From Octopus vulgaris (lineage: Eukaryota): a stretch of 64,000 nucleotides of DNA. Shown piece by piece: positions 1-56,075 of this stretch; within the stretch, counting starts at the first letter, position 1; every line of letters begins with the position of its first letter. The stretch lies in the NCBI GenBank assembly GCA_951406725.2, contig OX597831.1, positions 28,086,001 to 28,150,000 of the forward strand, read 5' to 3'. The notes beneath the pieces were generated by a model. The model had not been told where the DNA came from, made no database searches, and saw nothing but the letters and a program-made list of their open reading frames with translations. Made by a program: the position numbers and the translations under genes.

Positions 1-754
1 ACAGGTACCTACTTAAAAATCTTGAATCTTTATATTCCATTCGCTTCTTTCACATGTTCTCATACACACACACACACACACAAATGGGACAAGAATGCAA
101 AACATCCAGACAGTTAAGTGATACAAAAAAGGGACAACAAAACACCCACACAGACAATACAAAGAAAACAAGGACCGGTCATTCGGAGTTTTCTTTCCTC
201 AGTCGAGTTTCAGATTATCTTTGCGATTTCGGCTGGTTATACTCGAGATTGCTCCAATCTAGCCAGCCCCAAGGAAAAACAAAGCTAAGAGCATTAGAAA
301 GTAGCGAATGTATACGAAAACAAGGACGGAAAAAAACGGAGAAAGTTACACAAATACAAATAACAGGACATAACAACAGGTGTCTTTCGACTAAGGACGC
401 ATTAAATTAAGCTGGCGTGTGTGGAAGTAAAGCTTTACGGCATGGACATAAGATTCAACAGGTACAGGGAGGAATATAGATGTTGCACGGATGGTAACAC
501 ATACATATGTATATATAGGTCTATTCGATATTTTAAGTAGTTAATAATAGACGATTAGAATTAGTCTCTGTGGCGAGTTAAACCGAGCTCTTAGTTATAA
601 ATGAAGTCTCAACATAGGACTGAAACTAGTACAGTGGATTCCCCTTCATCTCTCCATGGAAATATTATATACAAAAGAAAAAAGATTTTTGCATCTGTCT
701 ATTGCATGGTGGTGGAAAAAATCCATATACTCTGTAATATAGACTAAGATACCA

Positions 755-1215
755 ACTTACCAACATAACTACCTATTTATCTATCTACCTACCAAGCTAT
801 CTACCAACCTACTTAGCTATCTACTATTTACCTACTTACCTACCTACCTATTCACCTACCAAGCTATCTAGCAGCCTACTTACCTATCTACCGACCTACA
901 TTATCTATTTACCTACCTACCGTTCCATCTACCTAATAATCTACCTACCTACCTATCTAACCACCAACCTACATTATCTATTTATCTACCTACGGTTCCA
1001 CTTACCTAATAACCTACCTACCTACTTGCCTACCAAGCTACTTACTTACCTATCTACCTACCTAGAATATCTATTTACCTACCTACCGTTCCACCTACCT
1101 AATAAACTATTTACCTACCTACCTACCTACCTACATACATACATGCATACATACACACACACACACACACACACACTACGTACGTATCTACCAACCTACC
1201 TCTCCACCCATCTAC
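755..1215. repeat. Degenerate (CTAC/CTAT)n low-complexity tract with (CA)n
   Basis: Runs of ctac/ctat tetramers visible directly. Confidence 0.85.
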
Positions 1216-1384
1216 GTATTCATATCAATTGCTGCTTGTGGTTTAGTCGATAAGAGTTAAATCCACGTTATTGCCTAAGTAAACACCTTAAGTGAATCAT
1301 TACAGGTATGTTCCTCTTCATTTACTAATTCATACATAATAACAAATGATGGTAAATTGGTTTCTCTTTGTTCGCAAATAATAC

Positions 1385-1895
1385 TGTTGTTGTTGTTGTT
1401 GTTGTTGTTGATAATTCTGTCGCTATTGTTATTGTTACAGATGCTATTATTGATGTCTTTTTTTATTGTTGTTTGTCTATAAAGGTTGTCTTTCGTGATG
1501 ATGATAATGCTGCTGCTACTGGTGATGGTAGCACTAGCGATGATGATGGTGGTGGTGGTGGTGGTGGTGGTGGTGATGGAGGTGGCGGCGGTGACGATGG
1601 TGATAACGATGATTGTGGTGGTGGTGGTGGTGGTGGTGGCGGTGGAGATGGTGGTGGTGGTGATAACGGTGATGGTGGTGGTGGTGGTGGCGGTGGAGAT
1701 GGTGGTGGAGATGCTGATGGTGGTGGCGGTGGAGATGGTGGTGGTGGTGGAGATGGTGATGTGGTGGTGGTTGTGGTGGTTGTAGTGGTAGTGGCGGTGG
1801 TGGTGGAGATGGATGTAGTGGTAGTGGCGGTGGTGGTGGGGATGGATGTAGTGGTAATGGCGGTGGTTGTGATGGCAGTGTTGATGATGATAGCA
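1385..1895. repeat. (GTT)n/(GGT)n/(GAT)n trinucleotide low-complexity tract
   Basis: Direct; explains the poly-G/V/P/H ORFs. Confidence 0.9.
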
Positions 1896-2339
1896 GTGTT
1901 GCGGAGTATCCAGCCACCAGCCACAAAAGCCCTCACCTAATACAATAATAATAAACCCACAGAAAGACTGTGGACGCCATTGTCTGAACTGTCGTCTGTT
2001 TATCTATGGCGTCTGATTATATTGACTGAAGAGGTAGTGAGTGTAGGTGGGAGGAGAGAAACGGAAAACGGAGATAGGTAAAGGAGTGAGTGAGAACATG
2101 GTAAAATGAGAGTGAGTGGAACAGAATAATAGTAAATAGAGAGTGAGAGAGAAAAAGTTGATAAAGGAGTAGTGAGAAAGAGAGGGAGGGAGAAGTTTGA
2201 GAAATAGTGAGGAATAAAAAGAGAGTGAAGAAGGGAAGGAGTAGTAGACATAGAGAGGCAGAAGAAATAAAGAGGGCGGTTATTGTTTTTATTTTTGTAT
2301 TCGAAAGTAATGCTCCATGATGTTTATGGTAGTCACTCA

Positions 2340-3222
2340 GAATCCAGAAAAAAAAAAAAGTCACAGGAAGAAGAAAGGTCACAGAAAAAAGTCGATGGAA
2401 AAATAGCCACGGAAAAAAAGTCAGAAGAAAAGTCACAGAAAAAAGCCAACTAAAAAGGTCTATAAAACAAGATTGTGACAGGGTTGCTTGGTGGCGTCGG
2501 CTGGAATATTTGTCTTAGTCACCCAACATTAAAATTACTGAATATCCATGCAATGCCACCATACTATGTAAGGTTTTTCTAATCTGGACATGTCGTGTAT
2601 TGTCAATAATTGACCGACTTAAATCGTTTGTTTCATTGGCTTATTTTGGTTAAAAATTTGAATAAAATGTTGCTTTTTTCCCCACATATGTATAACTAGC
2701 AGTATCGCCCGGCGTTGCTCAGGTTTGTAATGGAAATAACTATAAAGCATTTTTAGAGAGTTATAGCCAAAAAATAGCAAAAAAATGGGAAAAAAATGAT
2801 GGTAAATTTTTTTTTAGAGTTAAAAAATGTCGAGTTGCGTCCCCTAGACAGTCTGTGGTTTGTGTTTCTGATTCTCGACCCCATGTCGAATTTATCGATT
2901 TTTTCAGAACTGGGGGAACTTTTCAAAATTTTCGCTGCGTTAGTTTTGAATTATGACATTGGGCTATGTGTGCGTCAAGTTTCATCAGAATCGGTTGAAA
3001 GCCGTGGTCAGGGTGAGGGTACAACCAAACAGACACACAGAAACACACAGAGACAAACTGCCGTTTATATAGAGAGAGATGCCATCATTTATAAATTGCG
3101 TAAAGTTCATTTACTGTTAGTTAACTGATTTAAAATCGTTTGCTTTATTACTTGTTTATAGTATTTACATAACATGTAACTATTTCCTAGCTAACTTGTA
3201 ACTTTTTTTCTGAACACCGTCT
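2340..3222. mobile_element. Putative MITE with ~15-bp GGAAAAAAGTCACA subterminal tandem repeats, interrupted by a Helitron
   Basis: Tandem gaaaaaagtcaca units at 2345-2460 and complementary gtaactttttttctg near 3198-3212; boundaries uncertain. Confidence 0.35.
2696..3079 (-). mobile_element. Non-autonomous Helitron
   Basis: Minus strand begins TC and ends with a CC(T/C)GAGCAACGCCGGG hairpin plus CTAG, inserted between A and T; same termini at 8145, 39529 and 46545. Confidence 0.75.
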
Positions 3223-3387
3223 GTCTGGTGATGTGTATGCAATGAGATTTGAACATTTGAAGAGAAAAGTGTATTGGAAGGAATTCCAAGATTACTTCAG
3301 TACCAGGGAGAAATGCAGAAGAATAGCAAAGCTAGACGAAGGGGGCAGTGCTACCCACCATCACCCGCTGTAGGAGTGTGAAAGAGT

Positions 3388-3630
3388 GAAGGCACGTGGC
3401 TTAGTGATTAGGGTATTCGGCTCACAATCATAAGGTTGTGAGTTCAATTCTTGACGGCGAATTGTGTCATTGAGCAAGGCAATTTATTTCACATAGTTCC
3501 AATCCATTCAGCTGATAAAAATGAGCATGAGTAGTACCCGTAATTCAAAGAGCCAACTTTGTCACACTCAGTGTCACGCTGAATCTCCATGAGAACTACG
3601 TTAAGGGTACGCATGTCTTTAGAGTGCTTT
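3388..3630 (+). mobile_element. tRNA-derived SINE (family A)
   Basis: A-box tggcttagtgatta and B-box gagttcaattc; homologous to 56099-56420. Confidence 0.8.
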
Positions 3631-3654
3631 AGAGCTATTTCGTACTTAAGAGAG

Positions 3655-4160
3655 TTATATGTGTCTATTTTTTTCGCCTTCCTTCTTAATTATTCGTGGG
3701 TGAAAGGGACATGCAACATCAACTAAATAACACATATGGTGCATCTTGTCTACCGCCACTAGGTCCGGTCTGTTATGCTCTAGCACCTGATCTATCTGGA
3801 TTGAGAAATCCCAGAGGATTTTGCAGGTTTCCGACTCCGTCACTCTCTACGGTTTGTACTCATACTTCGTCTTGCACATCTCTGGCCCCCACTTTTGCAC
3901 AGTTTCCTATGTACTACTTTCGCTACCTCATTTTGTCACCACAACTTGTAGTGGTTTTCGGCAAGTCTAGGGCATTCGTTCGCGATATGGACAATGGTTT
4001 CGTACTCCCTATAACAAATGCGGAACAGTAGAGACACTTGCTCATTCCTAAGGTTGACCCTCCAATTTGTGGCCAAAGCTTGGAGTCTGGTCTTGCGCTG
4101 CCAGTATAGTGCTCTCAATCTCTTTTTTCAGTGTCCCATTCTTTAATTTCACGGGCAGCC
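3655..4160 (-). pseudogene. R4/Dong-like non-LTR retrotransposon C-terminal fragment (zinc knuckle plus restriction-like endonuclease)
   Basis: Translations RICYREYETIVHIANECPRLA and KILWDFSIQIDQVLEHNRPDLVAVDK...LVDVACP match the knuckle and RPD..D motifs of RLE-clade LINEs; frameshifts present. Confidence 0.8.
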
Positions 4161-4866
4161 TGTTCTACTGATCATATTTACGGGGACACTCATCATCGTA
4201 ACCGACGGAGTGCCAGTTTAGTTTAGGTGTGAAAGGACCCAAGATGTTCTGTTTATCATGCTTGTTAATAAAGACATTACCATATTTTCCCGCAAGTTGA
4301 ATTTTTCAGACCAAAATTTACAGCCTAAAAAGGAAGGTTGATTTATGCACCAAGACAACTTTCGAGGTGACTGTGTTTGTCCCCCCACACCATCGCTTGA
4401 CAACTTTCGAGGAACAAATGTTTTATGTGAAATGCAACAGGATTTAGAAAGATAGTGACGATGTTTGAATATTTACATTACAGGTTGACACTATTATTGT
4501 CGACTTGTATGCCGGAAAATACGGTAATTAAAGCAGCGAAACCATTGCCTTTGCTCGTGGGCGCTGAGAAACCTCGCAACATTGCTGTGAGAATCATTGG
4601 GTGTCTAGTGTTTAGTGCTAGGGTTTGCACAAAATGTGAGACAGAGTAGGAATGGTGATGAAGAAGAGACAGGTGCATGGGATGAACAAAGGTAGCACTC
4701 AGCCAGCTTAGAGTGGCGAAATCTACTTAGTAACATTCCCCCCGGATCTTTGAGATCCGAATTCAAATCCCACTGAGGAAAAAGTTAGCCTTTCGTTCAT
4801 TTGGCATCGATAAAAGATGTAGTACCAGTAAAAGAATTTCAGGTCCTGTGCCTAAAATAAAAACAA

Positions 4867-4897
<31 letters not shown>

Positions 4898-5017
4898 CAT
4901 TTTTATTATTATCATTATCCTGGACGGTGAGCTGGTGTCGTTCCCGTTTCCTGTTTATAAGACATGCCTTTCCGCAGCTCACTTCTTTTGATGGAGCTGC
5001 TGTCCTGGGTCAAGAGA

Positions 5018-5325
5018 AAACAATGGTTTCGTACTCCCTATTACAAATGCGGCACAGTGGAGACACTTGCTCATTCCTAAGGTTAACCCTCCAATTTGTG
5101 GCCAAAGCTTGAAGCCTGGTCTTGCGCTGCCAGTGTAGTGCTCTCAATCTCTTTTTTCAGTGTCCCATTCTTCAGCCAATCCCACCTATGTTTTCCAGCA
5201 ACTCCAGTTGTGGCTACATGAAGCTCATTGTGTTGCCCCTTGTTGCGAAATGCTTCTCCACGTCCTTTTTGTACTTCATTGTTTTTCCCTTTTTGTCTGC
5301 TTTCAATACTCCCTCGTTCCTAACT
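5018..5325 (-). pseudogene. Second fragment of the same R4/Dong-like LINE
   Basis: 5020-5172 closely matches 3991-4142 (acaatggtttcgtactccct...gtgtcccattct). Confidence 0.75.
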
Positions 5326-5329
5326 GACA

Positions 5330-5410
<81 letters not shown>

Positions 5411-5612
5411 GATGGCGAGCTGGTAGGATCGTTAGCATGCGGTGCAAAATGCTCAGCGGCATTTCGTTCCGGGTTCAAATTCCGCCGAGGTCGACTTTGC
5501 CTTTCATACTTTCGGGATCGATAAACTAAGTACCAGTGAAACTGGGTTTCATGTAATCGGCTATCCCCCTTCCCTCAAATTCCAGGGCTTGTGCTTATAG
5601 TAGAAAGGATTA
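5411..5612 (+). mobile_element. tRNA-derived SINE (family C, Meta/Nin-like central domain)
   Basis: gatggcgagctgg head, ggttcaaattcc B-box, gcctttcat.ctttcggg.tcgataaa core; sits in (ATT)n. Confidence 0.75.
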
Positions 5613-5669
5613 TTATTATCATTATTATTATTATTTTTAATTTTTAAATTTTTTTTTATTAATTATTAT

Positions 5670-6230
5670 TATTGAGTGAGAGAGCAAAGCATGTCATCAA
5701 AGTAACGCTGGGGTACAAATATACGAAGACCAATAGACCTATCATGACTATCCGTCTGACAAAGGTATACCAGGCACATGCATCACAACCATATATGCGC
5801 GACATGATGATCTCATTTCAAGATAAACAGCACATGACCTTGCAGGGTGGAGGCAGTCAGAATTCTCTTCAGGTCGAGTAACCCATCCGGCTCAAAAGGT
5901 CCCTGAATAAGGGTTGTTTAAGGATGATAAACGAAACACCCTTGTTTCCAGAGGTGAATGATTCAAACCCCAAAGAATCCCTCTCAACACATGGCTATGA
6001 TGCTCCCCCACTACTTCTGCTCATGATCAGAGATGCACATATCATCAGCTACCACACGACATGCTCAACTGGTTAAGGTCAAACGACTGACAAACAAATC
6101 TGTGGTATTGAGCAGAATATTTGCTGTAGCCCATCTTTTATACCAAGACAAAACAATGTACATGATAACACTTCCAATCAGTTAAGATCAGAAGCCACGA
6201 GAGCCACTGCCTGGTACTGCATCAGGGCAT
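5670..6230 (-). mobile_element. Unclassified interspersed repeat inserted in (ATT)n
   Basis: ~560 bp of complex sequence bounded on both sides by ttattatt; no coding motif recognised. Confidence 0.35.
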
Positions 6231-6962
6231 TTATTATTATTTATTATTATCCGTTGCATCACCTCAATTATTTGAAGAAACGAGGTCGTGAAGGATTACA
6301 TATTTTCGAAAGTGGGTCCCGATAATAAAAAAAGGTTGAGAACTTCTATTGAGAAGGGCCCCTACCCCGTCATTTCGTTAGATCGCCTTTGGCAATGAGA
6401 GTTTGCTTGCTACGATAGAATGTCAGAGACTGAGAAGTCTGGAGACGAAAATAGAATTAGAATCTTATAAAGCCATTGAAACGGGACATATCGTCTGCTC
6501 CCTTCCATATTGTTTGTTGGTGAGTTGGGTACATTGTCGTGTCTGGTTAGCATATATTATTAACCTTAAAACACTTTTTCTGACATACTGTAACCTTTCC
6601 TTTATCTAGCATTCGGAGAAGGGGGGATTTATTCTTTGAATTCATTCCCCCCACTCTCTCCCATACATAGAACCACCTTATATATGTATATATACGCGCG
6701 CGCACGCAAATATATATATGTATATATACTCACGCGCACGCACACACACACACACACACACACATACATACATACATACATACATACATACATACATACA
6801 TACATACATACATACATACATACGTACGTACATACACACACGAGACACCTACGCATGTATATTCGTATATCATATTCATAGACGTACATGCATAAAATAT
6901 ACACATATATTTGCGCATATGTGTACATGTACATGCATGCGTGTGTGTAAATGTCTTTTCTT

Positions 6963-7021
<59 letters not shown>

Positions 7022-7181
7022 TCTCGTTGTGTGTCTACCTGTCTATTTCTCAAAATAAGCTGTGTCGACACTATCAGGGACCGCAAGATTGTAATTAAGT
7101 GGACTGATCGTTCTAGACTATGTGTCGCCTGCCTCGCTTTTACAATTGTGGTCAGTTTTGAGCGTCAAACACGCACGCACG

Positions 7182-7242
<61 letters not shown>

Positions 7243-7344
7243 ACACATACATATATTTAGATACATGCATTTATAGGGCTCAATGAAAACAAACATACAG
7301 TCATACAAGAACAGGGGTATACATACATATATACATACATGCAT

Positions 7345-7533
7345 ACATGGCGCAGCTACGAATCTATATTTAGAAGTTTGCTTCTCAACCATATGGTTCC
7401 GAGTTCGGTTCCACTTCACGCAAGCTTGGGCAAGTATTTTCTACTATAGCCGCGGGTTGACCAAACCCTTGTGAGTGGATTTAGTATGGTAAACGGAAAC
7501 AGAAAGAAGCCCGTTGCATATGTATGTATGTGC

Positions 7534-7589
<56 letters not shown>

Positions 7590-7810
7590 ATGTGCATGCA
7601 TGCGTGTGTGCGTGTCTGTGTTTGTATTTGTCTTCCACCAACGCTCGACAACCCAATGTTGTTTTGTTTACGTCCTCGTATTTTACAGAATACGTACCAA
7701 GTTTTAAATAAAATAAGTAGTGGGGTTGATTTGTCTGAATAAACCCTCTCAAATCGGCGACCCAGCATGGCCACAGTCCAACGACTGAAACAAGTAAAAG
7801 CTAGAAAATA
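7345..7810 (+). mobile_element. CORE-like SINE (family B) with internal (GT)n
   Basis: cttgggcaagt core and gactgaaacaagtaaaag tail; homologous to 58988-59400. Confidence 0.75.
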
Positions 7811-8144
7811 AAATGCGAGGTGGTATCAAAAAGTTCCCGGGCTAGTTCAGTAGCGCGCCAGCAGATGACAGCACACGTTTGTGTGCGCAATGAGAGCTAG
7901 TGGTGACTTTTATGTAGCAGTGTGCCGAGTGAGACCGCTGTGTTTACTTCGCAAGCTGTGAAATTTGTGATTATGTGTATGCTATAGTCTGCGATTTTGT
8001 CATGGACAGGACCAAAGTGCCAAAGTGACAACCGATGTTGGTGTGTTTATGTCCCCATAACTTTGCTGCTCGGCAAAAAGAGTCGAATAGAATAAGGACC
8101 AGGCTTCAATAATAATACTGTGAAGGCTGCGTGACGTTCGATTA

Positions 8145-8657
8145 TCTATATATATAAAACTGTAGTTGTGTGAGTGTCTGTCCCCTTCGATTTAGATTCC
8201 TAACTACTCCCACATTTTGCGGTGCAGTTTAACCAAATTCGGGTATCTTATAGTCGTGATTCATATCGAGCCCGTCTGAGTATTAGCGCGCGTCTACGAT
8301 GAGTCTACGATTTTAAAAATAATTTAACATCATTTTTTATACCATTTTAATGCATAATTTTTCGTGTGTCGATGGCGGCGGAGTTTGCGTCCATGGTCAC
8401 ACCTGCACCTGTTTGCTTCTCCCCCTTCTTCCCTCCCTCGTGAAGCTGTGGGGAAGGGAGTATAAGGAAATCAACGTCGTAAAGCGTTGTCAAGGAGACC
8501 AGCGTTCTTTTAGAACAACGACTTCATGGCTTGAAGACACCAAAACAGAAATGGCTAAGAAAGCCTGAATTGGCATCTATAAGGGAAGTAACTCTCTAAA
8601 AATGCTTATATAGTTATTTCCCTTACAAACCCGAGCAACGTCGGGCGATACTGCTAG
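8145..8657 (+). mobile_element. Non-autonomous Helitron
   Basis: a|TCTATATATATAAAAC start; CCCGAGCAACGTCGGG hairpin then CTAG|t end. Confidence 0.8.
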
Positions 8658-8682
8658 TAAATAAATAAAATTAAATATAAAC

Positions 8683-9180
8683 TAAGTACAGGACATTACC
8701 AACGAGTGAAAAATATCTAAACACACGAGAGATATTTTGTCCTGAACTTATCTCTCGTGTGTTTACGTATTTTTCACTCGTTGGTAATGTCTTGTACTTA
8801 ATGTGTATTTATTTTTTATATCCATCTTTCATGTCCAGACTTATTTCTTCGCATCCGCCACCACAACCTCGTTTAGGCTTAGCAGCCCTTCCTGTCTGTT
8901 TTCACTGTCCTGTTTTTGTCACCAATCTTGACCCTCCGCAAGATCACAAATTTTAATTTAATTTGCTTTGCGGGAGCAACTGTTTTATCGAAGGCGTATC
9001 TTATCGTGAATTGCTCGAAATACGGACTAGAAGAACAGCAGACAACTGACGAAGGGTCGTTCCTCGTGTTGCTTGTCTTGTTTTCTATTTGTTTCTTTCG
9101 TTACTTGCAGAAAAAGCCCTTATTCCATGTCCTCGTACTTCGTACTTTTCGTAGTTTATGTTTTGTGACGTCCTGTGCCC
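8683..9180 (+). mobile_element. Penelope-like pseudo-LTR remnant with terminal fold-back
   Basis: 52-bp inverted arms at 8683-8734 and 8749-8800; degenerate hammerhead-like motifs at 8966-9027 and 9041-9077. Confidence 0.45.
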
Positions 9181-9226
9181 ACATATGTATATACGTATAC
9201 ATGTGTGTACGTATACATATGTATAT

Positions 9227-9276
<50 letters not shown>

Positions 9277-9304: not shown

Positions 9305-9343
<39 letters not shown>

Positions 9344-11980: not shown

Positions 11981-13623
11981 AGTTATTAGATTAATGCAAT
12001 TGTAAATATTCCATGCTCTGTTCAACATAGTGATGTTTAGAGAGTATGTGTAGCCATAACAACACCAGCTGTGATGATTGTGGTGGTGACGGTGGCAATG
12101 GTGGCAGTGATGGGTAGCAATGGTAGTGGCAATGGTGACGGTGGCTATGATGGTGGTGGCAATGGTGGTGGTGGCAGTGATGGAATTGACAACAATTTTG
12201 ACAATGATGATGATGACGATGATGACAACAATGATGACGATGATGATGTTCAGTTAGAGCAGCACAATTAGCTATCACTGATTTGCAAGCTTTCTCTGTA
12301 GCTGAAATAGAATTTTCTTTCATCAGCCCATTCCTGAAGTTTTTTCTGTACCTGATCAATTAGAAATATTTCACATCAACTCCAGCAGGCATTGCCAACA
12401 ATAACCTAGAGGGAACTAAAGGAAACAATCCCAACAAACCAAGAACAATGACATACTTTGGGAACCTTAATGGATGCCATACAGAGAAACAACTCAAGTT
12501 TAAAAATTTCCTTTTCTTAAATGTCCTTGCTCTTCCGGAAAGACATATTTTAATTGACCGTTTATTGTGTATCTGGAAGTATGTTTGGATCAACCAGTCC
12601 TTACTGTTGTGTCTACAGAACTGGTTGTATTGTTCTAAAGAAGTGGTTTTACAACTCTCGTTCGACTTTTCATATTCCATTTTCCATTGACAGGGGCTAA
12701 TGTTGGCCATATTGATGTCAACAGTAACAAGAAACCACAACTGTTGTGGTTCAACTGTTGGAATGAAACTCCAGAAATGGGCTGATTTTCTGCTTCATTT
12801 TAAAAGAATGAGAGACCAATTGGACATTAGAGACATGACTGAGTTTCCACATAGTACTGAAGTTGTATTGAATGAACTTGAAATAATAAATTGAATCTTT
12901 GTCAGTTAATTATAGGTGCAGGCATGGCTGTGTGGTAAGATGTTTGCTTCCCAACCACTCCATTCTTGGTTCAGTCCAACTGCATGGCACTCTCAGCAAG
13001 TGTCTCCTATTAAGGCCTCAGGCTGACCAAAGTCTTGTGAGTGGATTTGGTTATGGAAACTGAAAGACACACATCATATATATATATACATACATATACA
13101 TATACTTTTCTCACTGGATTGCGTGTTTGTTTCTCTTTTTGCCATCTGTGATTTTATTTTTGATCTTCTATATTAATGAAGATATTTCCTCCGTCTGGCT
13201 GCATTTCTTTCTGCAAAACAGGAAGTTACATTGTAGAACTACCATTCTAATGAGTTGTATTTATTTATCACCTAACAAGATGCATCTGCACTGCAGGATA
13301 CTCCTGAACCAGTTCTTGAGTGTCCCACCCATGAGGAATCGATGCTAGATGTGTCAAAACAATTGTCGTGATTAATTATAAATTCTCTGTATATTCCATC
13401 TTCTGGGGCTTTCATTTGCCATATATATATGCGTGTGTGTGTATACGTATGTGTGTGTGTATATATATATATATACACATTCGAGGTAAAACTGTTTTAA
13501 CAATTATAGCTTAGCAAAGTAGGTCAGGCCATTGTGTTTTGAAGAGATAATGTATGCATTTGTGTGGTGGGGATGGCAAGGGAATAAGTGTGTGTAGGTC
13601 TATGGATGACTGAGTGTTATAAA

Positions 13624-14291
13624 TGAGAGGAAGTCAAAAATGATCCCCACTTTCACTATAACATATCTTTATTATCGTCACACTGCCTTCTGCACATGTG
13701 TGCTTATACTTGGTACTATTGTGGTCACATAATCGAAATCTGAGCTTGATCCTGCCATTTTTTCTTTCTGACTTCAAAGTGTAAGCATGGTCATTCCACT
13801 AGCAATGTGTACCAAGGAGAACAAAGAGAAGTGATCTGATTTTTCTGGTCAGAAGGCATGTCAGGTGTTGAAATTCATTGGAGGCCTTTTGCACAATACA
13901 AGAACTATGCATTACCACCTAGAAGTGTGTAGGAGTGGATCAAGAAATTTATAAGTAGCTGAACAAGCATGATATACGAAAAAGGAGCAGAGGACCTGTC
14001 AGCCTCCGCCACTGTCGAGAAGATTCAGCAAGCTTGAGAGATGGCAATGGTAGACTGGTTTACTGTCCCCATCTCATGAATCACTGCTCTTTGTTCTCCT
14101 TGGTGCACATTGCTAGTGGAACGACCATGCTTACACTTTAAAGTCAGAAAGAAAAATGGCATGATCAAGCTCAAACTTCACTTATGTGTCCACAATAGTA
14201 CCAAATATAAGCACACATACTCAGAAGGCATTATGACAATAATAAAGATATATTATGGCAAAAGTGCAGATAAGTTTTGACTTCCCCATGT
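13624..14291 (+). mobile_element. Non-autonomous mariner derivative with ~210-bp inverted arms and an N-terminal transposase remnant
   Basis: Arms 13627-13835 and 14080-14288 are reverse complements; interior reads FLWSEGMSGVEIH...EWIKKF-like mariner HTH with stops. Confidence 0.75.
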
Positions 14292-14394: not shown

Positions 14395-14493
14395 ACACTA
14401 CGTACGTTTCATGGCTATAATTAAATTCGAATTACAATTAAGTTTAAATTCAATTGAAAATTCAAATTAAAATTATAGTCAATCTTCAGGTTA
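14395..14493 (-). ncRNA. Hammerhead ribozyme-like motif (type I, weak stem I)
   Basis: Minus strand: ac-CUGAAGA-uugacuauaauu...aauuauagccau-GAAA-cguacg-UA-gu; palindromic stem III ACGUACGU. Confidence 0.55.
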
Positions 14494-20619: not shown

Positions 20620-21020
20620 TATAGGTGCAGGCATGGCTGTGTGGTAAGAAGCTTGCTTCCCAATGACATGGTTCTGGGTTCAGTTCCACTGCATGGGACC
20701 TTGGGCAAGTGTCTTCTGCTATAGCCTTGGTTCCAACCAAAGTCTGGGAGTGGATTTGGTAGATGGAAATTGAAAGAAGCCCATTATAGATGTATATATT
20801 TGTGTCTGTGTTTGTCTCCACTGCCATTGTTTGACAACTGATGTTGGTGTGTTTATGTTCCCGTAACTTAGCAATTCAGGAAAAAAGAGACCAATAGAAT
20901 AAGTACTAGGCTTACAAAGAATAAGTCTTGGGGTTGATTTGTTCGACTAAAACCCCTTAAGGTGGTACTCCAGCAAGGCCACAGTCAAATGACTGAAACA
21001 AGTAAAAGAATAAAAGAATA
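20620..21020 (+). mobile_element. SINE family B
   Basis: Head, ccttgggcaagtg core and gactgaaacaagtaaaagaat tail. Confidence 0.85.
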
Positions 21021-22562
21021 AAGTTCACCATCATCAATTTACTGCAGGGAAAGTTCACCATCATTGATTCATTGCAGGGAAAGTTCACCATCATCAATTC
21101 ACTGCAGGGAAAGTTCACCATCATTGATTCATTGCAGGGAAAGTTCACCATCATCAATTCACTGCAGGGAAAGTTCATCATCATTGATTCATTGCAGGGA
21201 AAGTTCACCATCATCAATTCACTGCAGGGAAAGTTCACCATCATTGATTCATTGCAGGGAAAGTTCACCATCATCAGTTCATTGCAGGGAAAGTTCACCA
21301 TCATCAATTTACTGCAGGGAAAGTTCACCATCATCAATTCACTGCAGAGAAAGTTCACCATCATTGATTCATTGCAGGGAAAGTTCACCATCATCAATTC
21401 ACTGCAGGGAAAGTTCACCATCATTGATTCATTGCAGGGAAAGTTCACCATCATCAATTCACTGCAGGGAAAGTTCACCATCATTGATTCATTGCAGGGA
21501 AAGTTCACCATCATCAATTCACTGCAGGGAAAGTTCACCATCATTGATTCATTGCAGGGAAAGTTCACCATCATCAGTTCATTGCAGGGAAAGTTCACCA
21601 TCATCAATTTACTGCAGGGAAAGTTCACCATCATCAATTCACTGCAGAGAAAGTTCACCATCATTGATTCATTGCAGGGAAAGTTCACCATCATCAATTC
21701 ACTCCAGGGAAAGTTCACCATCATTGATTCATTGCAGGGAAAGTTCACCATCATCAGTTCATTGCAGGGAAAGTTCACCATCATCAATTTACTGCAGGGA
21801 AAGTTCACCATCATTGATTCATTGCAGGGAAAGTTCACCATCATCAATTCACTGCAGGGAAAGTTCACCATCATTGATTCACTGCAGGGAAAGTTCACCA
21901 TCATTGATTCATTGCAGGGAAAGTTCACCATCATCAATTCACTGCAGGGAAAGTTCACCATCATCAGTTCATTGCAGGGAAAGTTCACCATCATCAATTC
22001 ACTGCAGGGAAAGTTCACCATCATTGATTCATTGCAGGGAAAGTTCACCATCATCAATTTACTGCAGGGAAAGTTCACCATCATTGATTCATTGCAGGGA
22101 AAGTTCACCATCATCAATTCACTGCAGGGAAAGTTCACCATCATCAATTCACTGCAGGGAAAGTTCACCATCATCAATTCACTGCAGGAAAAGTTCACCA
22201 TCATCAATTCATTGCAGGGAAAGTTCACCATCATCAGTTCACTGCAGGTAAAGTTCACCATCATCAATTCACTGCAGGGAAAGTTCACCATTTTCAATTC
22301 ACTGCAGGGAAAGTTCACCATCATCAATTCACTGCAGGGAAAGATCACCAGCATCAGTTCACTGCAGGGAAAGTTCACCATCATTAGTTCACCGCTAAGC
22401 TACGGGTACGTGTGCAGGGAAAGTTCACCATCATCAGTTCACTGCAGGGAAAGTTCACCATCATCAATTCACTGCAGGGAAAGTTTACCATCATTGATTC
22501 ATTGCAGGGAAAGATCACCAGCATCAGTTCACTGCAGGGAAAGTTCACCATCATTAGTTCAC
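21021..22562. repeat. 30-bp minisatellite, ~50 units (AAGTTCACCATCATCAATTCACTGCAGGGA)
   Basis: Exact 30-bp period visible line by line; no unique spacers. Confidence 0.97.
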
Positions 22563-33499: not shown

Positions 33500-33805
33500 G
33501 TGGCTCAGTGGTAAGAGTATCAGGCTCATAATTATGAGGTAGTGAGTTTAATTTCCAGACTGGGCTGCGTGTTATGTTCTTGAGCAAGACACTTTATTTC
33601 ACATTGCTCCAGTTCACTCAGTTGTAGAAATGAGTTATGGCATCACTGGTTCCAAGCTGTATCAGCCTTTGCTCTTCCCTTGGATAACATCGGTGGCATA
33701 GAGAGGGGAGGCTGATATGCATGGGCAGCTGTTAGTCTTCCATAAACAACCTATCCAGGACTTATGCCTTGGAGGGTAACTTTCTAGGTGCAATTCCATG
33801 GTCAT
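33500..33805 (+). mobile_element. SINE (family A head, alternative tail)
   Basis: Reverse-complement homologue at 58500-58828. Confidence 0.75.
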
Positions 33806-35007
33806 GCACCTAAATTATCAACACAATTTTGCCATTTTATCAGTAGGTTATTTATGCCAGCAGCAAAGAATTCTGGAGAGCAAGAGGTGATGAAATCACG
33901 AAAGGCTGTTTTTGCATCTCCTTCAGAATTGAAGTGTTTTCTTGGCAAAAAGTTGTCTAATGCCTGGAAAACATGATAGTCAGTTGGTGCAAGGTCTGGT
34001 GAATATGGTAAATGACAGAGTACTTCCAAGTTCAGTTCTTGTAACTTGAGTAGCATTCTTTCTGCAACATCTGGTCGGGCATTGTCTTGCAAAAGAATTG
34101 ATCTGTTTCTATCGACCAATCTCAGTTGTTTAATTGCAAGTTCACTCATCATTTCATCCAATTGGTTGTTGTATACATCTGCTGTAATTGACTTACCAAG
34201 CCTCATGAAGCTGCTGTGGATAGTATCAGCGCTGGACTACCAAACAGACACCATTAGCTCTTTTTGATGAATATTCTTTTTGGGATTGTGTTTTGGCATT
34301 TCGTCTCTAACCAGTCACCATTCAGAACACTTGCTATTGTTGAAAAGAATCTATTTTTCATCACACATAACAATACAATGCAAAAATGGTTCACTTTTAT
34401 GCCATGCCAGCAAAGAACAACAAGTTTTAAGATGACATGTCATTTGATGTTTGTTCAATTCATGTGGTACCCACTTGTCCAACTACTTCACATTGCCGAT
34501 TTGTTCCAGATGGTCCAATACAGTTGGAATCGTAACATCAAACCTGGCTGCTAACTCATGCATAGTTTGAGATGTATCTGCTTTCACTACAGTTTCTAGC
34601 TCATCATTATCCACCATAGTCTCGGGAATACCACAGAGCTGATTTCCAAGAGTAAAGTCACCAAACCGGATCTTCTCAAACCACTGACATACAGTGCACT
34701 CATTCGCCACACCTTCACCAAACACCTAAATGATGTTTTGAGCTGTCTGGGATGCACTGGATCCATGATGGAACTCATTTTCATAAGCAACATGAATTTT
34801 TGATCTATCCGTAAGGTTGCAAGAAATGGATTTCAAGAGAAAACTCACAATATAATCAGACACCATGAATTGCATTTTGAAAAGTGATGATGTAAACTCT
34901 TCAATGATGTGAAACAAAGAACTGTCAAGATAAAACATTAGAGTTAACGACTGTCAAACTTTATGCATCAGAAAATCGGACATTTCATTCTTAATGATGA
35001 CCTGTTA
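33802..35007 (-). mobile_element. Near-full-length decayed mariner (DD34D-type) transposon
   Basis: ORFs with ILLQDNARP, HLPYSPDLAPTDYHVF, CQWFEKIRFGDF and ELAARFDVT; TIR-like end at ~34975-35007. Confidence 0.92.
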
Positions 35008-35014: not shown

Positions 35015-35050
<36 letters not shown>

Positions 35051-35513
35051 GTTGAACTAGGGACAGCTGATGAAGGGGATTTTTCCTTGTGTAGTTGTCT
35101 TGTACTCTGTTTTTTCGTTGTTAAAAAAATGGTCCGTTCCATGCTGTTTTTACTTTTTTGTTTCTCGTTGAGTTCTACGTCTATTTATGGTGTCCTGTAC
35201 ACACGTATATATATTTATATATGCATGTATATATACATGTAGATGTAGGTACGTACATATATGTTTGTATGTATGCATATATTTTATTTATTACACTATT
35301 GTATGACTGAGCGCCCTCGCGTCGATTCAATTCGATTTGTTTAGTTTCGTTTCTTTTTCTTCCCTAAGCTGGTTTATATATATATATATATATATATATA
35401 AATGTATACATATATATACACACACAGACATACATATATATACACACACACATATATATATACACAAACACACATATATATATACATACATACATACATA
35501 CATACATACATAC

Positions 35514-39918: not shown

Positions 39919-40309
39919 TTACGGAGATGTACTTGCATAGCAAGTGACCTGATTTGAGATCGTCTGCTGAAACAAAAACAAACTGCCGTATGGAAGGTGT
40001 TTATAAGCCATTTAAGAAACACTCTAAAATCGTTAGATTCACTTCAACATTTAAATTTAATTTGTCAAAATATTTTCGTCGCTTTGAGACCGCGACCTAT
40101 TTATTCACTGACAAAATTCCGTGCTGCATATCTTCTACTTGAACCCCTGGTCCTCCAATAACAAGCACGGAATTTTGTTAGTGAATAAATAGGTCGCGGT
40201 CTGAAAGCGACGAAAATATTTTGACAAATTAAATTTAAATGTTGAAGTGAATCTAACGATTTTAGAGTGTTTCTTAAATGGCTTACAAACACCTTCCACG
40301 CTACAATTG
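39919..40309. mobile_element. Fold-back Penelope-like remnant with 135-bp arms and a 12-bp flanking direct repeat
   Basis: Arms 39991-40125 and 40164-40298; tcttctaaggta at 39907-39918 and 40310-40321. Confidence 0.65.
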
Positions 40310-42276: not shown

Positions 42277-42753
42277 GGCGATGTTTCGCTTGTCGTAGCC
42301 CACGTTTCCGTCGATTTCCTCCGTCGATTTCCGTAAAAAATGTAAACACTGAATCGGCCATACATACATACATACATACATACATACATACATACATACA
42401 TACATACATACATACATACATACATACATACACACATACATACACACACACATACATACACACACACACACACATACATAGATACATACTTCCTCCGTCG
42501 ATTTCCGTAAAAAACTTTTATTTTTTTACATAAGTAATGAGAGCGAAAGAGACTAAGAGGAAGCGATTTTATGACGAGGGAATTTCTTTTTGAAGTCCCC
42601 GTGTGTGTGTTTGATGGGGTGTGGGAGACAGACAGTATGTTGTGTAAGTGAAGTGCTTCTGTTAGTGTGTGTGAAGAGACAGAGTAATGTGTGAAAGAGA
42701 GAGATAACTGAATTTTTTTACTCGGTGTATGTGTATATGTATGTATGCATGTA

Positions 42754-42784
<31 letters not shown>

Positions 42785-42803
42785 GTGTGTGTGTGTGTAA
42801 GTA

Positions 42804-42834
<31 letters not shown>

Positions 42835-42942
42835 ATGTATGTATGTATGTATGTATGTATGTATGTATGTATGGCCGATTCAGTGTTTACATTTTTTACA
42901 GAAATCGACGGAAACATGTGCTACGACAACCGAAACATCGCC
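42277..42942. mobile_element. MITE with GG-starting TIRs extended by inverted (ATAC)n tracts
   Basis: ggcgatgtttcg...cactgaatcggcc(atac)n versus (gtat)nggccgattcagtg...cgaaacatcgcc. Confidence 0.75.
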
Positions 42943-48145: not shown

Positions 48146-48491
48146 TCAACATATACAACAACAACAATAATAATAATCCTTTCTGCTATAGGTACAAAGT
48201 CTGAAATTTGAGGAGAGGGGTCTAGTAGTTTACATCTTCCCCAGTTTTCAACTGGTACTTATTTTATTGACTCTGAATGAGATGAAAAACAAAGTTGACC
48301 TTGGCGGTATTTGAACTCAGAACATAAAGATGCATGAAATGCCACTAAGCATTTTGCCTGGTGAGCTTAACAATTCTGCCAGCTCACAGCCTTAATAATT
48401 AATGATAACAATAATCCTTTCTTCTAAAGACACAAGGCCTGAAATTGTGTGGGAGGAGACTAGTTGATTACATCGACCCCAGTGTTTCAGT

Positions 48492-48988
48492 GGTAGAATA
48501 TTTTGGCTGGATCTGGCTGGTTTGAACATACAACTGGTAGAATATTTCAGCTGGATCTAGCTGGTTGAGCATACAACTGGTAGAATATTTTGGCTGGATC
48601 TGGCCAGTTTGAACATACAACTGGCAGAATATTTTGGCTGGATCTAGCCGGCTTGAACATACAACTGGTAGAATATTTTGGCTGGATCTGGCCAGTTTGA
48701 ACATACAACTGGCAGAATATTTTGGCTAGATCTAGCCGGCTTGAACATACAACTGGTAGAATATTTTGGCTGGATCTCGCCAGTTTGAACATACAACTGG
48801 TAGAATATTTTGGCTGGATCTGGCCAGTTTGAACATACAACTGGTAGAATATTTTGGCTGGATCTGGCCAGTTTGAACATACAACTGGTAGAATATTTTG
48901 GCTGGATCTGGCCAGTTTGAACATACAACTGGTAGAATATTTTGGCTGGATCTCGCCAGTTTGAACATACAGCTGGAAGAATATTTGG
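48492..48988. repeat. 44-bp minisatellite, ~11 units (GGTAGAATATTTTGGCTGGATCTGGCCAGTTTGAACATACAACT)
   Basis: 44-bp period; followed by gctaaaggg|ttaa MITE end at ~49003-49015. Confidence 0.95.
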
Positions 48989-49560
48989 GCCCTAGTTTAA
49001 ATGCTAAAGGGTTAATCATAGATATTGCATGCCCAATAGTACAACTATTGACCCCACTTTTTTTAAAACACTTATTTACTGTTCCCTTCCTGTGCATTAT
49101 TCTCTGTACTGTTCATGCAGTTTTGACTGCTTTTTCTGTTGAGTCGTGCACCTGAGCACTGTATACCGTTAGTTCATTATTATTATTAAAAAAAGGCTAA
49201 GGTTGGTGTTGGAAGGATGTGGGATTCTGCCAAGATAGTTGCTAATGTGTTAATGCCCTGTGAAGCAAGATGTTCAAGATATGATAAGTATCTGAAATAG
49301 GGGTATTTATCTGATTAGAAGTCCATGGGATCAATATGTTGGACATGATGAGAGTTTCAGATAATTAGAGATGCAAATTGTGTGGCCATATCATTTGCCA
49401 TATATAGCTTTAAATAGCTGGTGAGTGGCTGACAAAGGTCTCACTGAAAGATGCTAAGAATATATATGTGTATACACACACACACACACACATTACAAAT
49501 GTGTATGTATTTGTGTGTGTGTGTGTGAGTGAGAGATGTGTATATGCATGCGCTTGTGTT

Positions 49561-49596
<36 letters not shown>

Positions 49597-50692
49597 TATG
49601 TGTTAAGTTCTTCAAAGAGAATGCCTGTAGAAATGCTGTGAGTTCTGTATGAAAGGAAGAAAGGACGGAAGAATTTCTCTATTGATTGATCACAAGATGA
49701 AGGAAGGAAGGAAAGAATGTGTAGACATATTGCATCATCATTGCTATGGTAACAACAATGGGCAGTCATCACTGACCACATATGTATATATATACTATAT
49801 ACTATTACATATATGTGTGTATTCACACACAGACACATATATACACATATACACATATGTGTGTGTATATGTGTGTTTTGTTAGATGGTTAACTTAGCTT
49901 TTAATAATAGCTGTGAATTAATCCATCTTTTGTCATTGCTGCATCGACAACAGGAAGTTGGATGATGTTTGCATGGATTGGAGATTGGATGGTCAGGGAA
50001 TGATGGAAGGGTCATCTGTTGGCGTTGATAATATTGGAACAGTTATTTGTGTGGACAACAGTTGTGCAAATATATTGATTGTTTTTATTTAGATCCTGGT
50101 CAACTGCAATTCAATGAATGAAAGACATCCTGTCTTTTGTGTGTGTCCAGGATTACATTGACCACTGTGTGTCCTTCCATTTCTAAAGGCAATATGGTAT
50201 GATATGAGGTAAATCAGTATCTATTTCTAGCAGGTTGGCTAAATGTATAAAGGTTTGTGGTAGCAGTAGAAATTAAAGGGCTCAGTGTATCTGGGACTTT
50301 TGGCAGTGAGTGCGGGGATAGGTCAGTGTAGTGGTGAGGACAACAGATGACCATGTATTGGTATGGATAAGAGATGTCCAGGCATGGCTGGGTGGTTAAG
50401 AAGTTTGCTTCTCAATCTCATAGTTCTGAGTTCAGTCCAACTGCTTGGTACCTTGGTCAAGTAAAAGTTTTTTACCATAGTCTTCGGCTGACCAAAGCTT
50501 AGTGGGTGGATTTGTGAATTCAGTAGACAGATAAGAAAATGAGTCCATCGTATACATACATATGTACATACATACATATATACATACATACATACATTTA
50601 TACATACATACATAGTATAAGGTAGGAAATATGGGTGAATATAGAAAGCTTACCAAGGATTAACTATTTAAATGAAAGCTAAATATATATAT

Positions 50693-51147
50693 ATAATTTA
50701 CAATATAAGGGCAAAAGAAAAATTCTAATGCCAAATATGCCGAAAAAAAGACAGAAATTGTCAATTAACCATTATAATTTATGTGTCTCAAAACAAACCG
50801 ATAGAAATTTCTAAAAAATTTGTTATTAACGTATTGGACCAATTTTGGAAGATTTTCTATTTTGGATATATTTGGGGTACTTAGGTCTGGTCAGGACTTG
50901 GTGTTTGCTTTTTCTGTGGGTATGAGTAAGTATTTCACTTATATCTCGTATATTTGCCTCTGAAGAGAAGAAAATTCTTATGAATTAACTCCGAAATTGG
51001 TCCAATAAGGTAATAACAAATTTTTTAGAAATTTCTATCGGTTTTTTTTCGAGACGCATAAATTATAATGGTTAATTGACAATTTCTGTCTTTTTTTCGG
51101 CATATTTGGCATTAGAATTTTTCTTTTGCCCTTATATTGTAAATTAT
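50693..51147. mobile_element. Fold-back Penelope-like remnant with ~157-bp arms
   Basis: 50693-50849 is the reverse complement of 50990-51147; hammerhead overlaps the right arm. Confidence 0.7.
50954..51013 (+). ncRNA. Type I hammerhead ribozyme
   Basis: uugccu-CUGAAGA-gaag...cucc-GAAA-uugg.u.ccaa-UA-agguaa: complete core, stems I-III, AUA triplet (predicted cut after 51007). Confidence 0.7.
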
Positions 51148-51507
51148 CTATAAATTTAACCTTTAAAGGTATTTTTTGATATGCTGGCCATTGATGAAAT
51201 TTTTTTCTCGAAAAAAATTTTATCCTTCATTAATTATATATATATGTATATACACACACACACACACACACACATACACATCATAATCATCATCATCATC
51301 ATCAGCACCATCATCATCACCATCATCATCATTGCTTAACATCTGCCTTCCATGTTGGCATGGGTTGGATAGTTTGACAGGAGTTGGCATGGCAGGAAAC
51401 TGCACCAGATTTGTGTTTGTTTTGGCACAGTTGTTATCAGCTGGTTGCCCTTCCTAACACCATCTACCCAGCAGAGTGGACATATATATATATATATATA
51501 TAATAAG

Positions 51508-53600: not shown

Positions 53601-53683
<83 letters not shown>

Positions 53684-54243: not shown

Positions 54244-54317
54244 TATATATATAGGATGCCATGTTAGATCGTTAGCTCCTACACGCATTTTTTTCTCTCC
54301 TTGTTTTTTTCTGTGTA

Positions 54318-54357
54318 TCTTTCTGTCAGGAAGAGCGTAGGCTCGAAACGTAAAAGA
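54318..54357 (+). ncRNA. Minimal hammerhead-like motif with corrupted CUGANGA
   Basis: ucuuu-cugucaggaa-gagc.guag.gcuc-GAAA-cg-UA-aaaga. Confidence 0.45.
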
Positions 54358-54453
54358 CATTTTCTATTTCTATTCCTGAGCGTTATACTAATACATTTGT
54401 TTGTTTGTACTCCACCTGCCTTCGTCTTTTGTTTATTTTCGTAAACTTACTCG

Positions 54454-54489
<36 letters not shown>

Positions 54490-54990
54490 TCGTCATCATC
54501 ATCATCATTGTGTAACGTCTGCTTTCCATGCTAGCATGGGCTGGACTATTTGACTGAGGACTAGTGAACCAGATGGCTGCACCAGGCACCAATCTTGATC
54601 TGGCAGAGTTTCTACAGCTGGATGCCCTTCCTAATGCCAACCAGTAGTGGGTGCTTTTACATGCCACCGGCTCAAGGGCCAGTCAGGCGGTACTGGCAAT
54701 GGCCATGCTCAAATGGTGTTTTTTTACGTGACACCTGCACAGGAGCCAGACCAGTGGCACTGGTAACGACCTTGCTCGAATGTTTTTTCACGTGCCACTG
54801 GCACAAGTGTCAGTAGGGCGACACTGGTAATGATCACACTCGAATGGTGCTATTTATGTGCCATTGGCACGGAAGCCAGTTAGCCGCTCTGGCAATGATC
54901 ATGCTCGGATGGTGCTCTTAGCGCTCTGCTAGCACAGATGCCAGTTATCAAATTTGATTTTGATTTCACTTGCCTCAATATGTCTTTGCA
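54490..54990 (-). mobile_element. SINE-like family D
   Basis: Reverse complement of 52615-53010. Confidence 0.75.
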
Positions 54991-55572
54991 AGCAATTATA
55001 TTATATTATATATTATACATTATATATATATATATATTTATATATGTATGTACATACATACACACACACATACATACACATACTCATACACACACACACA
55101 AGCATACAAACATACATAAATACATACATATGCACAGGAGTGGCTGTGTAGTAAGTAAATTGCTTACCAACCACATGGTTCTGGGTTCAGTCCTACTGCC
55201 TGTCAACTTGGGCAAGTGTCTTCCACTATAGCCTCGGGCCAACTAAAGTCTTGTGAGTGGATTTGGTAGACAGAAACTGAATATGTATGTATGTATCTTT
55301 GAGTGTGTTTGCATTTGTCCCCCACCACTGCTTGACAATAAATGATGGTTTCTTTTTCTTTTCTGTAACTTAGTTTGGCAACAGAAATGGATAGGCAAAG
55401 TTTTGCAGGACCAACAGAATAACTTTAAAGGAAAATATCGGTGTTGGGTTTGATTTGTTCAAGATGGGGGCTATAGCATGGTCACAGTCCAATGACTGAA
55501 ACAAGAAAAAATATAAGGTGGTGCTCCAGCATGGCCGCAATCATATGACTGAAACAAATAAAAGAATAAAAG

Positions 55573-55608
<36 letters not shown>

Positions 55609-55609
<1 letters not shown>

Positions 55610-56075
55610 GAGAAAAAGCTGCAAATATTGCAGCAAATACAAGTGTCCCGTACTCATCAGCTAAAACATATATGAGTTCTCCAAACATCCTAGTGGGTGA
55701 GGCTACACTCTGTGCATCATCATTAAAGAACTTTGGAAGTCCGCTTACAACCTAAATTTGTTTTTTATAGAACTATCTCCGATACTTCATGAGTGTAGCC
55801 TCACCCACTAGGATGTTTGGAGAACTCATATGTGTTTTAGCTGATGAGTACGGGACACTTGTATTTGCTGCAATATTTGCAGCTTTTAATAAAGCTTGTC
55901 TTTGTATGAAACAATTGTACTAAAAAAACTAATCCATTCTTGTTGCTTTTTTCTCGTTTATAATCACCCCACATTATTGTATGGTTAATACCATATAGTT
56001 TTCTGGTGCATCTAAGTTAAGTACCGCATTCAAGTGAATTCATTAGAACTGACTTGAATCTTAATTGGATTTACT
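55609..56075 (+). mobile_element. Fold-back Penelope-like remnant inserted in (TA)n
   Basis: 97-bp arms at 55614-55710 and 55791-55887; hammerhead in the right arm. Confidence 0.7.
55835..55925 (+). ncRNA. Type I hammerhead ribozyme with extended stem II
   Basis: uuuuag-CUGAUGA-guacgggaca...ugucuuuguau-GAAA-caauug-UA-cuaaaa: 6-bp stem I, palindromic stem III, GUA triplet (predicted cut after 55919). Confidence 0.78.

Follow-up and report, generated by a model that had tools for sequence, protein, structure and literature searches.

The elements treated here lie in a stretch of 64,000 nucleotides (nt) of the Octopus vulgaris genome (assembly GCA_951406725.2, contig OX597831.1, positions 28,086,001 to 28,150,000, forward strand; hereafter the window, to which coordinates refer), and their closest described relatives are hammerhead ribozymes of the following kinds. 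Minimal type I hammerheads occur in the pseudo-long terminal repeats (pseudo-LTRs) of metazoan Penelope-like elements and are described as cleaving weakly and acting as dimers (Cervera and de la Pena, 2014; PMC4209133); Penelope-like insertions are reported to be 5'-truncated, partly tandem, often accompanied by an inverted copy, and to favour (TA)n. Animal non-LTR retrozymes are tandem units free of open reading frames (ORFs), bounded by type I hammerheads, low in GC and derived from or dependent on Penelope-like elements (Cervera and de la Pena, 2020, PMC7229834; Li et al., 2026, bioRxiv 10.64898/2026.07.22.740005), in passages that mention neither octopus nor cephalopods. Finally, non-circularly permuted hammerheads such as type SGC (HRIMA-1 and its variants; Eckert et al., 2023, PMC10085705) were described from metatranscriptomes, with no example from a known organism's genome except one GCS candidate, and their CUGANGA block has been assumed to be uninterruptible.

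An original prediction, made from the letters of the window, had proposed at least eight ribozyme-like elements with all or part of a type I layout (601-634, 8966-9027, 14395-14493, 40174-40227, 50954-51013, 54318-54357, 55835-55925 and 60481-60556). Seven of these are probably truncated 3' ends from repeat families of high copy number. Four of the families are joined elsewhere in the genome to Penelope-like genes, and each has a predicted hammerhead, which in the families at 8929 and 196 takes a scrambled, split-core form that likely cuts the element RNA. The type I elements are further members of the known Penelope hammerhead class and are unsurprising in a host that the literature found does not treat; the permuted split-core wiring is the unexpected part. 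In the open full-text literature, a scope outside which subscription journals fall, nothing was found that describes Penelope hammerheads of cephalopods or a permutation with a split core. If true, a split-core form in an animal genome widens the allowed wiring of the hammerhead, and it would account for the failure of descriptor and Rfam searches to detect the motif. The numbering of hammerhead positions and the general effects of core changes follow standard usage.

The permuted motifs at 8929-9059 and 196-268

The element proposed at 8966-9027 does not have a type I layout, and a type II reading of 8966-9060 was rejected because no stem I can close. Judged from its sequence and that of its relatives, the motif is likely a hammerhead with a scrambled block order and a split core, predicted to cut, with the following parts and a related copy:

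8929-9059, + strand: predicted non-circularly permuted, split-core hammerhead; decayed copy with two stem I mismatches
8929-8935/9053-9059, + strand: helix X
8936-8973, + strand: hairpin Y
8974-8978/9012-9016, + strand: stem II
8980-8986/9032-9038, + strand: bridging stem
8995-8999/9020-9024, + strand: stem III
9000, + strand: C17, with the predicted cut at 9000/9001
9001-9006/9040-9045, + strand: stem I
9017-9020 and 9046-9052, + strand: GAAA and CUGACGA
35047-35243, + strand: copy from an 8929-type subfamily, truncated at its 5' end and lying in (TA)n, CUGANGA block alone kept, 93% identical to locus L327

The blocks follow one another in the order site, GAAA, CUGANGA, the 5' strand of stem II being supplied from upstream, and CUGANGA lies 25 nt 3' of GAAA in this family, which no circular permutation permits. 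A pattern made of the GAAA and CUGANGA blocks alone has 9,268 matches in the genome versus 30 for the reversed control; it contained no site block. A site block is found upstream in sister subfamilies of about 70% identity, with compensatory changes. Fifty motifs were sampled, i.e., the first 30 matches and 20 picks for diversity (L364, an unrelated match, was dropped), and of the 33 copies scored as full-length by a crude rule, 21 have matching stems I (at least 4 bp) and III (at least 3 bp), versus a mean of 10.5 when blocks are swapped between copies; none of 2,000 swaps reached 21. The cleavage sites of these 21 copies are GUC (10), GUA (6), AUA (3) and GUU (2).

An alignment of 40 rows (A1) was assembled from 31 of the 33 full-length copies (L329 and L345, truncated, were dropped), eight earlier loci and the window copy. 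Overall, 86.9% of its cells pair and 17 of 24 pairs show two-sided changes, with 153 two-sided cells versus 61 after shuffling, and a slide control, in which columns are shifted by 1-3, lowers pairing to 35-49%. Stems I and III are paired in 91-92% of cells, with both sides changing in 9 of their 11 pairs. Helices X, Y and II reach at least 4 bp in 31, 26 and 30 of 36 rows, respectively, with compensatory pairs (four upstream-truncated rows excluded). The bridging stem, which also shows two-sided changes, is paired in 74% of cells in A1, its inner extension included, and in 87.5% in the alignment (A3) of a second family found on the other strand of the window and absent from the eight proposed elements:

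196-268, - strand: second permuted hammerhead family
268-264, - strand: upstream stem II strand
247, - strand: C17, with the predicted cut at 247/246
246-241, - strand: stem I strand
230-227 and 202-196, - strand: GAAA and CUGAGGA

This family has the block order of the 8929 family and an unrelated sequence, and its pattern has 11,287 matches versus 2 in the control. Across 20 full-length copies, 94% of cells are paired, two-sided changes occur in 12 of 22 pairs (4.8 after shuffling), and two-sided cells number 29 versus 8.5 shuffled. The slide control and this second family are stronger checks of the permuted fold than the covariation counts.

The nearest precedent is type SGC, with which the octopus motif shares the site-GAAA-CUGANGA order, a short linker between stems I and II (3-5 nt here), a further stem that links these two at their far ends, and covarying stems I-III (Eckert et al., 2023). 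The 8929 type could thus be a plain type-SGC hammerhead, its stem II formed with the purine run that follows CUGANGA and the upstream pairing an alternative, inhibitory fold. Such a downstream stem II is possible in 96.8% of cells, with a two-sided change at one pair, but it is largely invariant and wobble-rich, one pair being U-G in 40 of 40 rows, whereas the upstream strand is paired in 97% of cells, by Watson-Crick pairs of which 3 of 5 change on both sides, with G10.1-C11.1 in 37 of 40. The near-invariant downstream run has, moreover, its own covarying partner in a strand further upstream, with which it forms helix X, and pairing between the downstream bases and the 11-strand is impossible in the 196 family, which together make a plain type-SGC hammerhead very unlikely. 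Because the upstream strand forms stem II, the run after CUGANGA pairs in helix X, and hairpin Y connects X directly, without an intervening unpaired base, to G10.1, the core appears to be opened between A9 and G10.1. Type SGC assumes an unbroken block C, i.e., CUGANGA with both flanking strands, which is split in the octopus motif, and for this reason the motif was not filed as type SGC. It further differs from the published examples by taking the 5' strand of stem II from upstream, by having X and Y between A9 and G10.1, and by occurring in thousands of copies of animal retroelements.

A few additional features of this family and its surroundings were noted. GUAA replaces GAAA in a subfamily with the permuted motif, in two independent copies (L316:3971 and L123:813). 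In 8929-type subfamilies, stem III is separated from the bridging stem by a conserved internal loop rich in purines (GAA facing AGUA), which resembles a loop E or kink-turn motif and is lost in the window's subfamily. A palindrome of 150 nt (84%) lies just upstream of the 8929 element, at 8667-8816.

Genomic 5' ends and predicted cuts

Tandem units without an ORF occur in both permuted families, of 836-840 nt for the 8929 type and 713 nt for the 196 family. Such units would be copied in trans with the enzymes of Penelope-like elements; the permuted hammerhead would cut multimeric transcripts into unit-length RNA, and reverse transcription of this RNA would run off at the cut. The 5' ends of genomic copies can be used as a readout of whether Penelope hammerheads cut in vivo, and this readout gives a positive result for the permuted type and a negative one for the four type I families sampled. 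Among the first 30 pattern matches of the 8929 type, 13 copies start in the interval from 12 nt on the 3' side to 2 nt on the 5' side of the predicted cut, 2 start in the next 17 nt and 2 in the next 40, and 13 extend more than 120 nt; the excess near the cut is significant (p 0.004-0.006), with 6 of 30 starts within 2 nt on either side. This distribution fits reverse transcription running off cleaved RNA. With patterns placed 3' of the cuts, none of 120 starts in the four type I families falls within 3 nt on either side of the cut; the 5' ends of the 40174 family lie mostly 49-66 nt upstream of it, none within 3 nt.

On balance, it seems reasonably probable that the motif lies beyond the six block permutations, one or two helices being inserted where the chain enters the core, between A9 and G10.1, that it exists in more than 20,000 copies from two unrelated families, and that it cuts in vivo to provide unit-length templates; it may also supply Naiad elements with the ribozyme believed to be missing from them. 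Of the latter, Naiad_Ovul is marked HHR_half_core in the supplement of Craig et al. (2021; PMC8557442).

Several observations count against such a role. The 5'-end excess of the 196 family does not reach significance (7 versus 2, p 0.07-0.09), with a single start in 30 within 3 nt on either side of the cut; in both permuted families, many copies begin 5-13 nt to the 3' side of the cut, which could also stem from stalling of the reverse transcriptase (RT) or template switching at the pseudoknot; and the anchors used were closer to the cut for the permuted families than for the type I families. As for the fold, covariation cells count related sequences from a handful of subfamilies, which inflates them, the number of two-sided pairs taken alone is not above shuffles in A1 (17 versus 15.3; 94 of 500), helix X is irregular and helix Y absent in the 196 family, and to fold in cis the chain would have to turn sharply from stem III into the bridging stem. 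RNA data weigh neither for nor against cutting: no RNA is listed for 8870-9160, and three RNA runs, labelled as another species, gave 196-338 unstranded reads, mostly less than 90% alike, without a pile-up of starts or ends at the permuted motif.

The permuted motifs might alternatively act only in trans, with the CUGANGA of one unit docking on a site and GAAA that belong either to the following unit or to a separate molecule. The tandem arrangement of the units, at 713-840 nt, is compatible with this, as are the long bridging pairings, which would seem hard to close in cis, and the dimeric action reported for metazoan Penelope hammerheads (PMC4209133). Helix X nevertheless encloses the whole motif within one unit, and the type-SGC precedent cleaves in cis, so activity in trans alone is judged unlikely.

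Type I families and Penelope-like genes

Minimal type I features, i.e., both boxes, stems I and II, a palindromic stem III and an NUH site, are found in the elements at 55835, 50954 and 14395 and in the 60481 family; the 40174 and 54318 families lack an unchanged core, having G3:C8 and A6U, respectively. As in metazoan pseudo-LTRs, the order is type I, stem III is palindromic, stem II is long, an extra base follows A9, and copies are mostly solo and truncated, some in opposite-strand pairs (Cervera and de la Pena, 2014). The octopus differs by families with G3:C8 and a UUU site, with A6U, or rich in C4; a family with a U3-A8 swap is described in Schistosoma (PMC4209133), and the core variants listed by Perreault (2011; PMC3088659) are U3-A8 and A6C, not G3-C8 or A6U. 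The original prediction had linked its elements to Penelope, and four families are indeed joined to RT or GIY-YIG ORFs elsewhere in the genome. Their copies in the window are the following:

55711-56075, + strand: pseudo-LTR of a Penelope-like element, with a complete type I hammerhead at 55835-55925 and a GUA site
55614-55710, - strand: inverted 5'-truncated copy of the 55835 element
60480-60581, - strand: decayed type I hammerhead of an older Hydra-like family, with its 5' box at 60576-60570, an 8-bp stem II and a GUA site
13124-13403, + strand: second, more decayed copy of the 60481 family (74% identity)
40164-40298, + strand: 3' end of an element encoding RT and GIY-YIG, with a type I hammerhead at 40174-40228 and a UUU site, mutated in this copy
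39991-40125, - strand: inverted 5'-truncated copy of the 40174 element
54244-54449, + strand: 3' end of a GIY-YIG element, with a minimal type I hammerhead at 54318-54357 and a 4-nt palindromic stem III

In the window, the 55835 family is represented by a solo pseudo-LTR, accompanied by its inverted truncated copy in (TA)n. At locus L065, an inverted repeat of this family precedes RT and GIY-YIG frames, themselves followed by a direct copy. With the L065 endonuclease as a query, 150 matches were obtained, and the same-strand repeat follows the GIY-YIG ORF in 27 of the 30 loci fetched; it was not seen in the other three (L101, L115 and L118). Five further loci have open frames of 976-984 codons between hammerhead-bearing direct and inverted repeats. 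The parent protein (L123) has RWK, DKT, a CxCX5C linker, C-terminal CxxC and CxH, and no CCHH, in agreement with the description of the Hydra clade (Craig et al., 2021), to which the parent would belong by its motifs, the basis of the Hydra and Neptune assignments given here. A named Octopus sinensis protein matches part of one linked ORF at 70%.

The 60481 family is older, its copies being 81-86% identical to one another. It has a 5-bp stem I, an 8-bp stem II and a GUA site, and its 5' box, which had been misplaced in the proposed layout, reads CCGAAGA in 9 and CUGAAGA in 5 of 18 copies parsed (of 20). In 9 of 20 loci, Penelope-profile matches, to the endonuclease and the end of RT only, are found upstream in the same orientation, and L204 carries a CxCX5C linker.

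The 40174 family (5,268 exact pattern matches) has a 7-bp stem I, a palindromic stem III, a UUU site and, in 97 of the first 100 matches, the core GUGAACA, in which C3 and G8 are swapped. RT and GIY-YIG frames lie upstream of its repeat in L393, L396, L404 and L410, and one 2.4-kb alignment at 94% runs from the ORF to the hammerhead; the parent has a CX3CxxC linker and a Pfam GIY-YIG match (E 9e-5). In long copies, a microsatellite-rich tract separates the hammerhead from these frames, and 22 of the 40 best matches of this tract are on contig C16, where the query originated. A 784-aa element beside L244 was rejected as the parent, since 27 of 30 loci lack the motif and, in L288, it is a separate insertion in the (TA)n tail. 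In the 54318 family (2,223 matches), the core is CUGUCGA (A6U) in 99 of the first 100, and the window copy has a 2-nt insertion in the core. In L266, a tract rich in pyrimidines connects its repeat with a GIY-YIG frame (endonuclease only) whose linker is CX4CxxC, and the last codons of such a frame lie upstream of it in L277 and L089. Both parents have a linker of the Neptune-like form (CX2-5CxxC), a likeness to Neptune/Nematis by motif only (Craig et al., 2021).

Most copies of the 55835, 60481, 40174 and 54318 families are thus 5'-truncated pseudo-LTR remnants of autonomous elements, and not mini-elements, so that the idea of many non-autonomous families does not hold for these four. It does apply to the 8929-type and 50954 families, and possibly to 14395; the type I copies of the 50954 and 14395 families in the window are:

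50849-51241, + strand: incomplete copy of a tandem unit of 470 nt that lacks an ORF, with a complete type I hammerhead at 50954-51013 and an AUA site
50675-50849, - strand: inverted partial copy of the 50954 element
14395-14493, - strand: type I hammerhead with an exact core, a long stem II, an 8-nt palindromic stem III and a GUA site

The 50954 family, with hammerheads spaced by 470 nt and a longest frame of 65 aa, is a retrozyme-like tandem unit. An ORF-less tandem unit with a hammerhead in each, low in GC, is what it shares with the 8929-type and 196 units and with non-LTR retrozymes; the latter differ by carrying type I motifs where 8929-type units carry the permuted one, and by abundant linear and circular RNA in their definition, the octopus units being known here from DNA. 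An RT fragment upstream of L029 was dismissed as the 50954 parent, with unrelated sequence in between. The 14395 hammerhead has a stem I of only 2 bp; its family is AT-rich, at least 2 kb long and internally duplicated with a period of about 740 nt, and four 7-kb loci held no ORF. Pairs spaced by 3.2 kb and 3.1 kb (L272/L273 and L061) were local duplications without an ORF, and walking upstream from the 8929 and 14395 families met the previous unit or AT-rich repeats and no ORF.

Penelope-like enzymes would nick (TA)n, reverse-transcribe from the 3' end and stop early, and the frequent addition of an inverted truncated copy would make fold-backs by-products of this mode of insertion. The families agree with it by their inverted partial copies, partly tandem pseudo-LTRs and (TA)n targets, features which, with a C-terminal GIY-YIG, are also those of the Hydra and Neptune/Nematis EN+ clades (Craig et al., 2021). 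The 3' part contains (TA)4 in 30 of 30 copies of the 55835 family, 23 of 30 for 54318, 18 of 30 for 40174 and 9 of 30 for 50954, the background being 112 of 480 flank windows.

Some facts speak against these assignments. The window's own copies at 8929, 40174, 54318 and 60481 are mutated, and the ORF link of the 54318 family comes from one locus, with a Pfam E value of 0.006, below the curated cut-off. Furthermore, because no ORF was found for the 8929, 196, 50954 and 14395 families (20-50 loci per family), we infer, rather than observe, the enzyme that mobilises them.

Type I motifs with a palindromic stem III would cut weakly, as dimers, and cleavage may be slow or lost in the A6U and G3:C8/UUU families. 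A broader doubt is whether the hammerheads are catalytic at all or mere passengers, either structured 3' ends bound by RT or decayed relics amplified with the elements. Two successful families have fixed these very core changes, no step in 5' ends occurs at the cut of four type I families, minimal Penelope hammerheads cleave poorly in vitro, and a relaxed type I scan found no hammerhead in the repeats of three copies of a young 784-aa family. The G3:C8 swap, on the other hand, still pairs in the core, diverged subfamilies of the permuted type retain both catalytic boxes and the preferred NUH triplets, and 8929-type 5' ends cluster at the cut; passenger status is considered quite unlikely. The young family just mentioned has many 784-codon RT and GIY-YIG frames at 95-97% identity (L313, L314, L315 and L317). 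In L067, L288 and L362, different Penelope-related families join or insert into each other's 3' tails.

Window-level evidence and other features

All eight stretches are present in the window where they had been placed, with exact CUGANGA and GAAA boxes and a palindromic stem III in three copies only, at 50960 (+), 55841 (+) and 14489 (-). A strict descriptor (stem I at least 5, stem II at least 3) gives one match in the window versus a mean of 0.02 in 200 local dinucleotide shuffles, 4 of which also reached one. With Rfam, suggested as a check, the window gave 341 weak matches, the best 150 of which include no hammerhead, and none reached the gathering score in 8 representative loci. The evidence for hammerheads from the window alone is thin, and the case therefore rests on relatives in the whole assembly (2.8 Gb, 227 contigs), of which seven of the eight elements have 955-4,103 candidates each, with exact pattern counts of 423-9,268 versus 0-30 in controls. 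That no Penelope RT or GIY-YIG ORF lies in the window was confirmed by tblastn and a 42-sequence profile. Four elements had been described as tied to long inverted arms, and four arm pairs were found, listed here together with the element at 601-634:

39991-40298: inverted arms, 98%
50685-51155: inverted arms, 96%
55614-55887: inverted arms, 99%
13629-14285, strand unassigned: inverted arms beside the 14395 element, 84%
601-634, + strand: hammerhead-like 3' half with a palindrome, 5' box broken, no stem I, near-unique

Fold-backs of this kind could in principle be chance matches or miniature inverted-repeat DNA transposons (MITEs), a reading suited to 601-634 and to the shuffles that produced a strict match, as well as to three unrelated relaxed-descriptor matches in the window. 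It is refuted for seven of the eight elements, with thousands of exact family matches versus near-zero controls, variable 5' and fixed 3' ends, and links to RT and GIY-YIG ORFs, and is exceedingly improbable overall. The element at 601-634 is the one that drops out: its box reads AUGAAGU, stem I is absent, and its single relative genome-wide, at 75% identity, has no hammerhead core, so that the sequence does not support it as a ribozyme.

The window is also rich in microsatellites. A mariner-like transposase fragment lies at 33802-34236 on the - strand (Pfam Transposase_1, E 6e-5), and tandem arrays with long open frames occupy 21020-22562 (30 bp, 52 copies) and 48491-48990 (44 bp, 11 copies). 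A further fold-back, at 42320-42912, has 170-nt arms containing (CATA)n that are 92% complementary.

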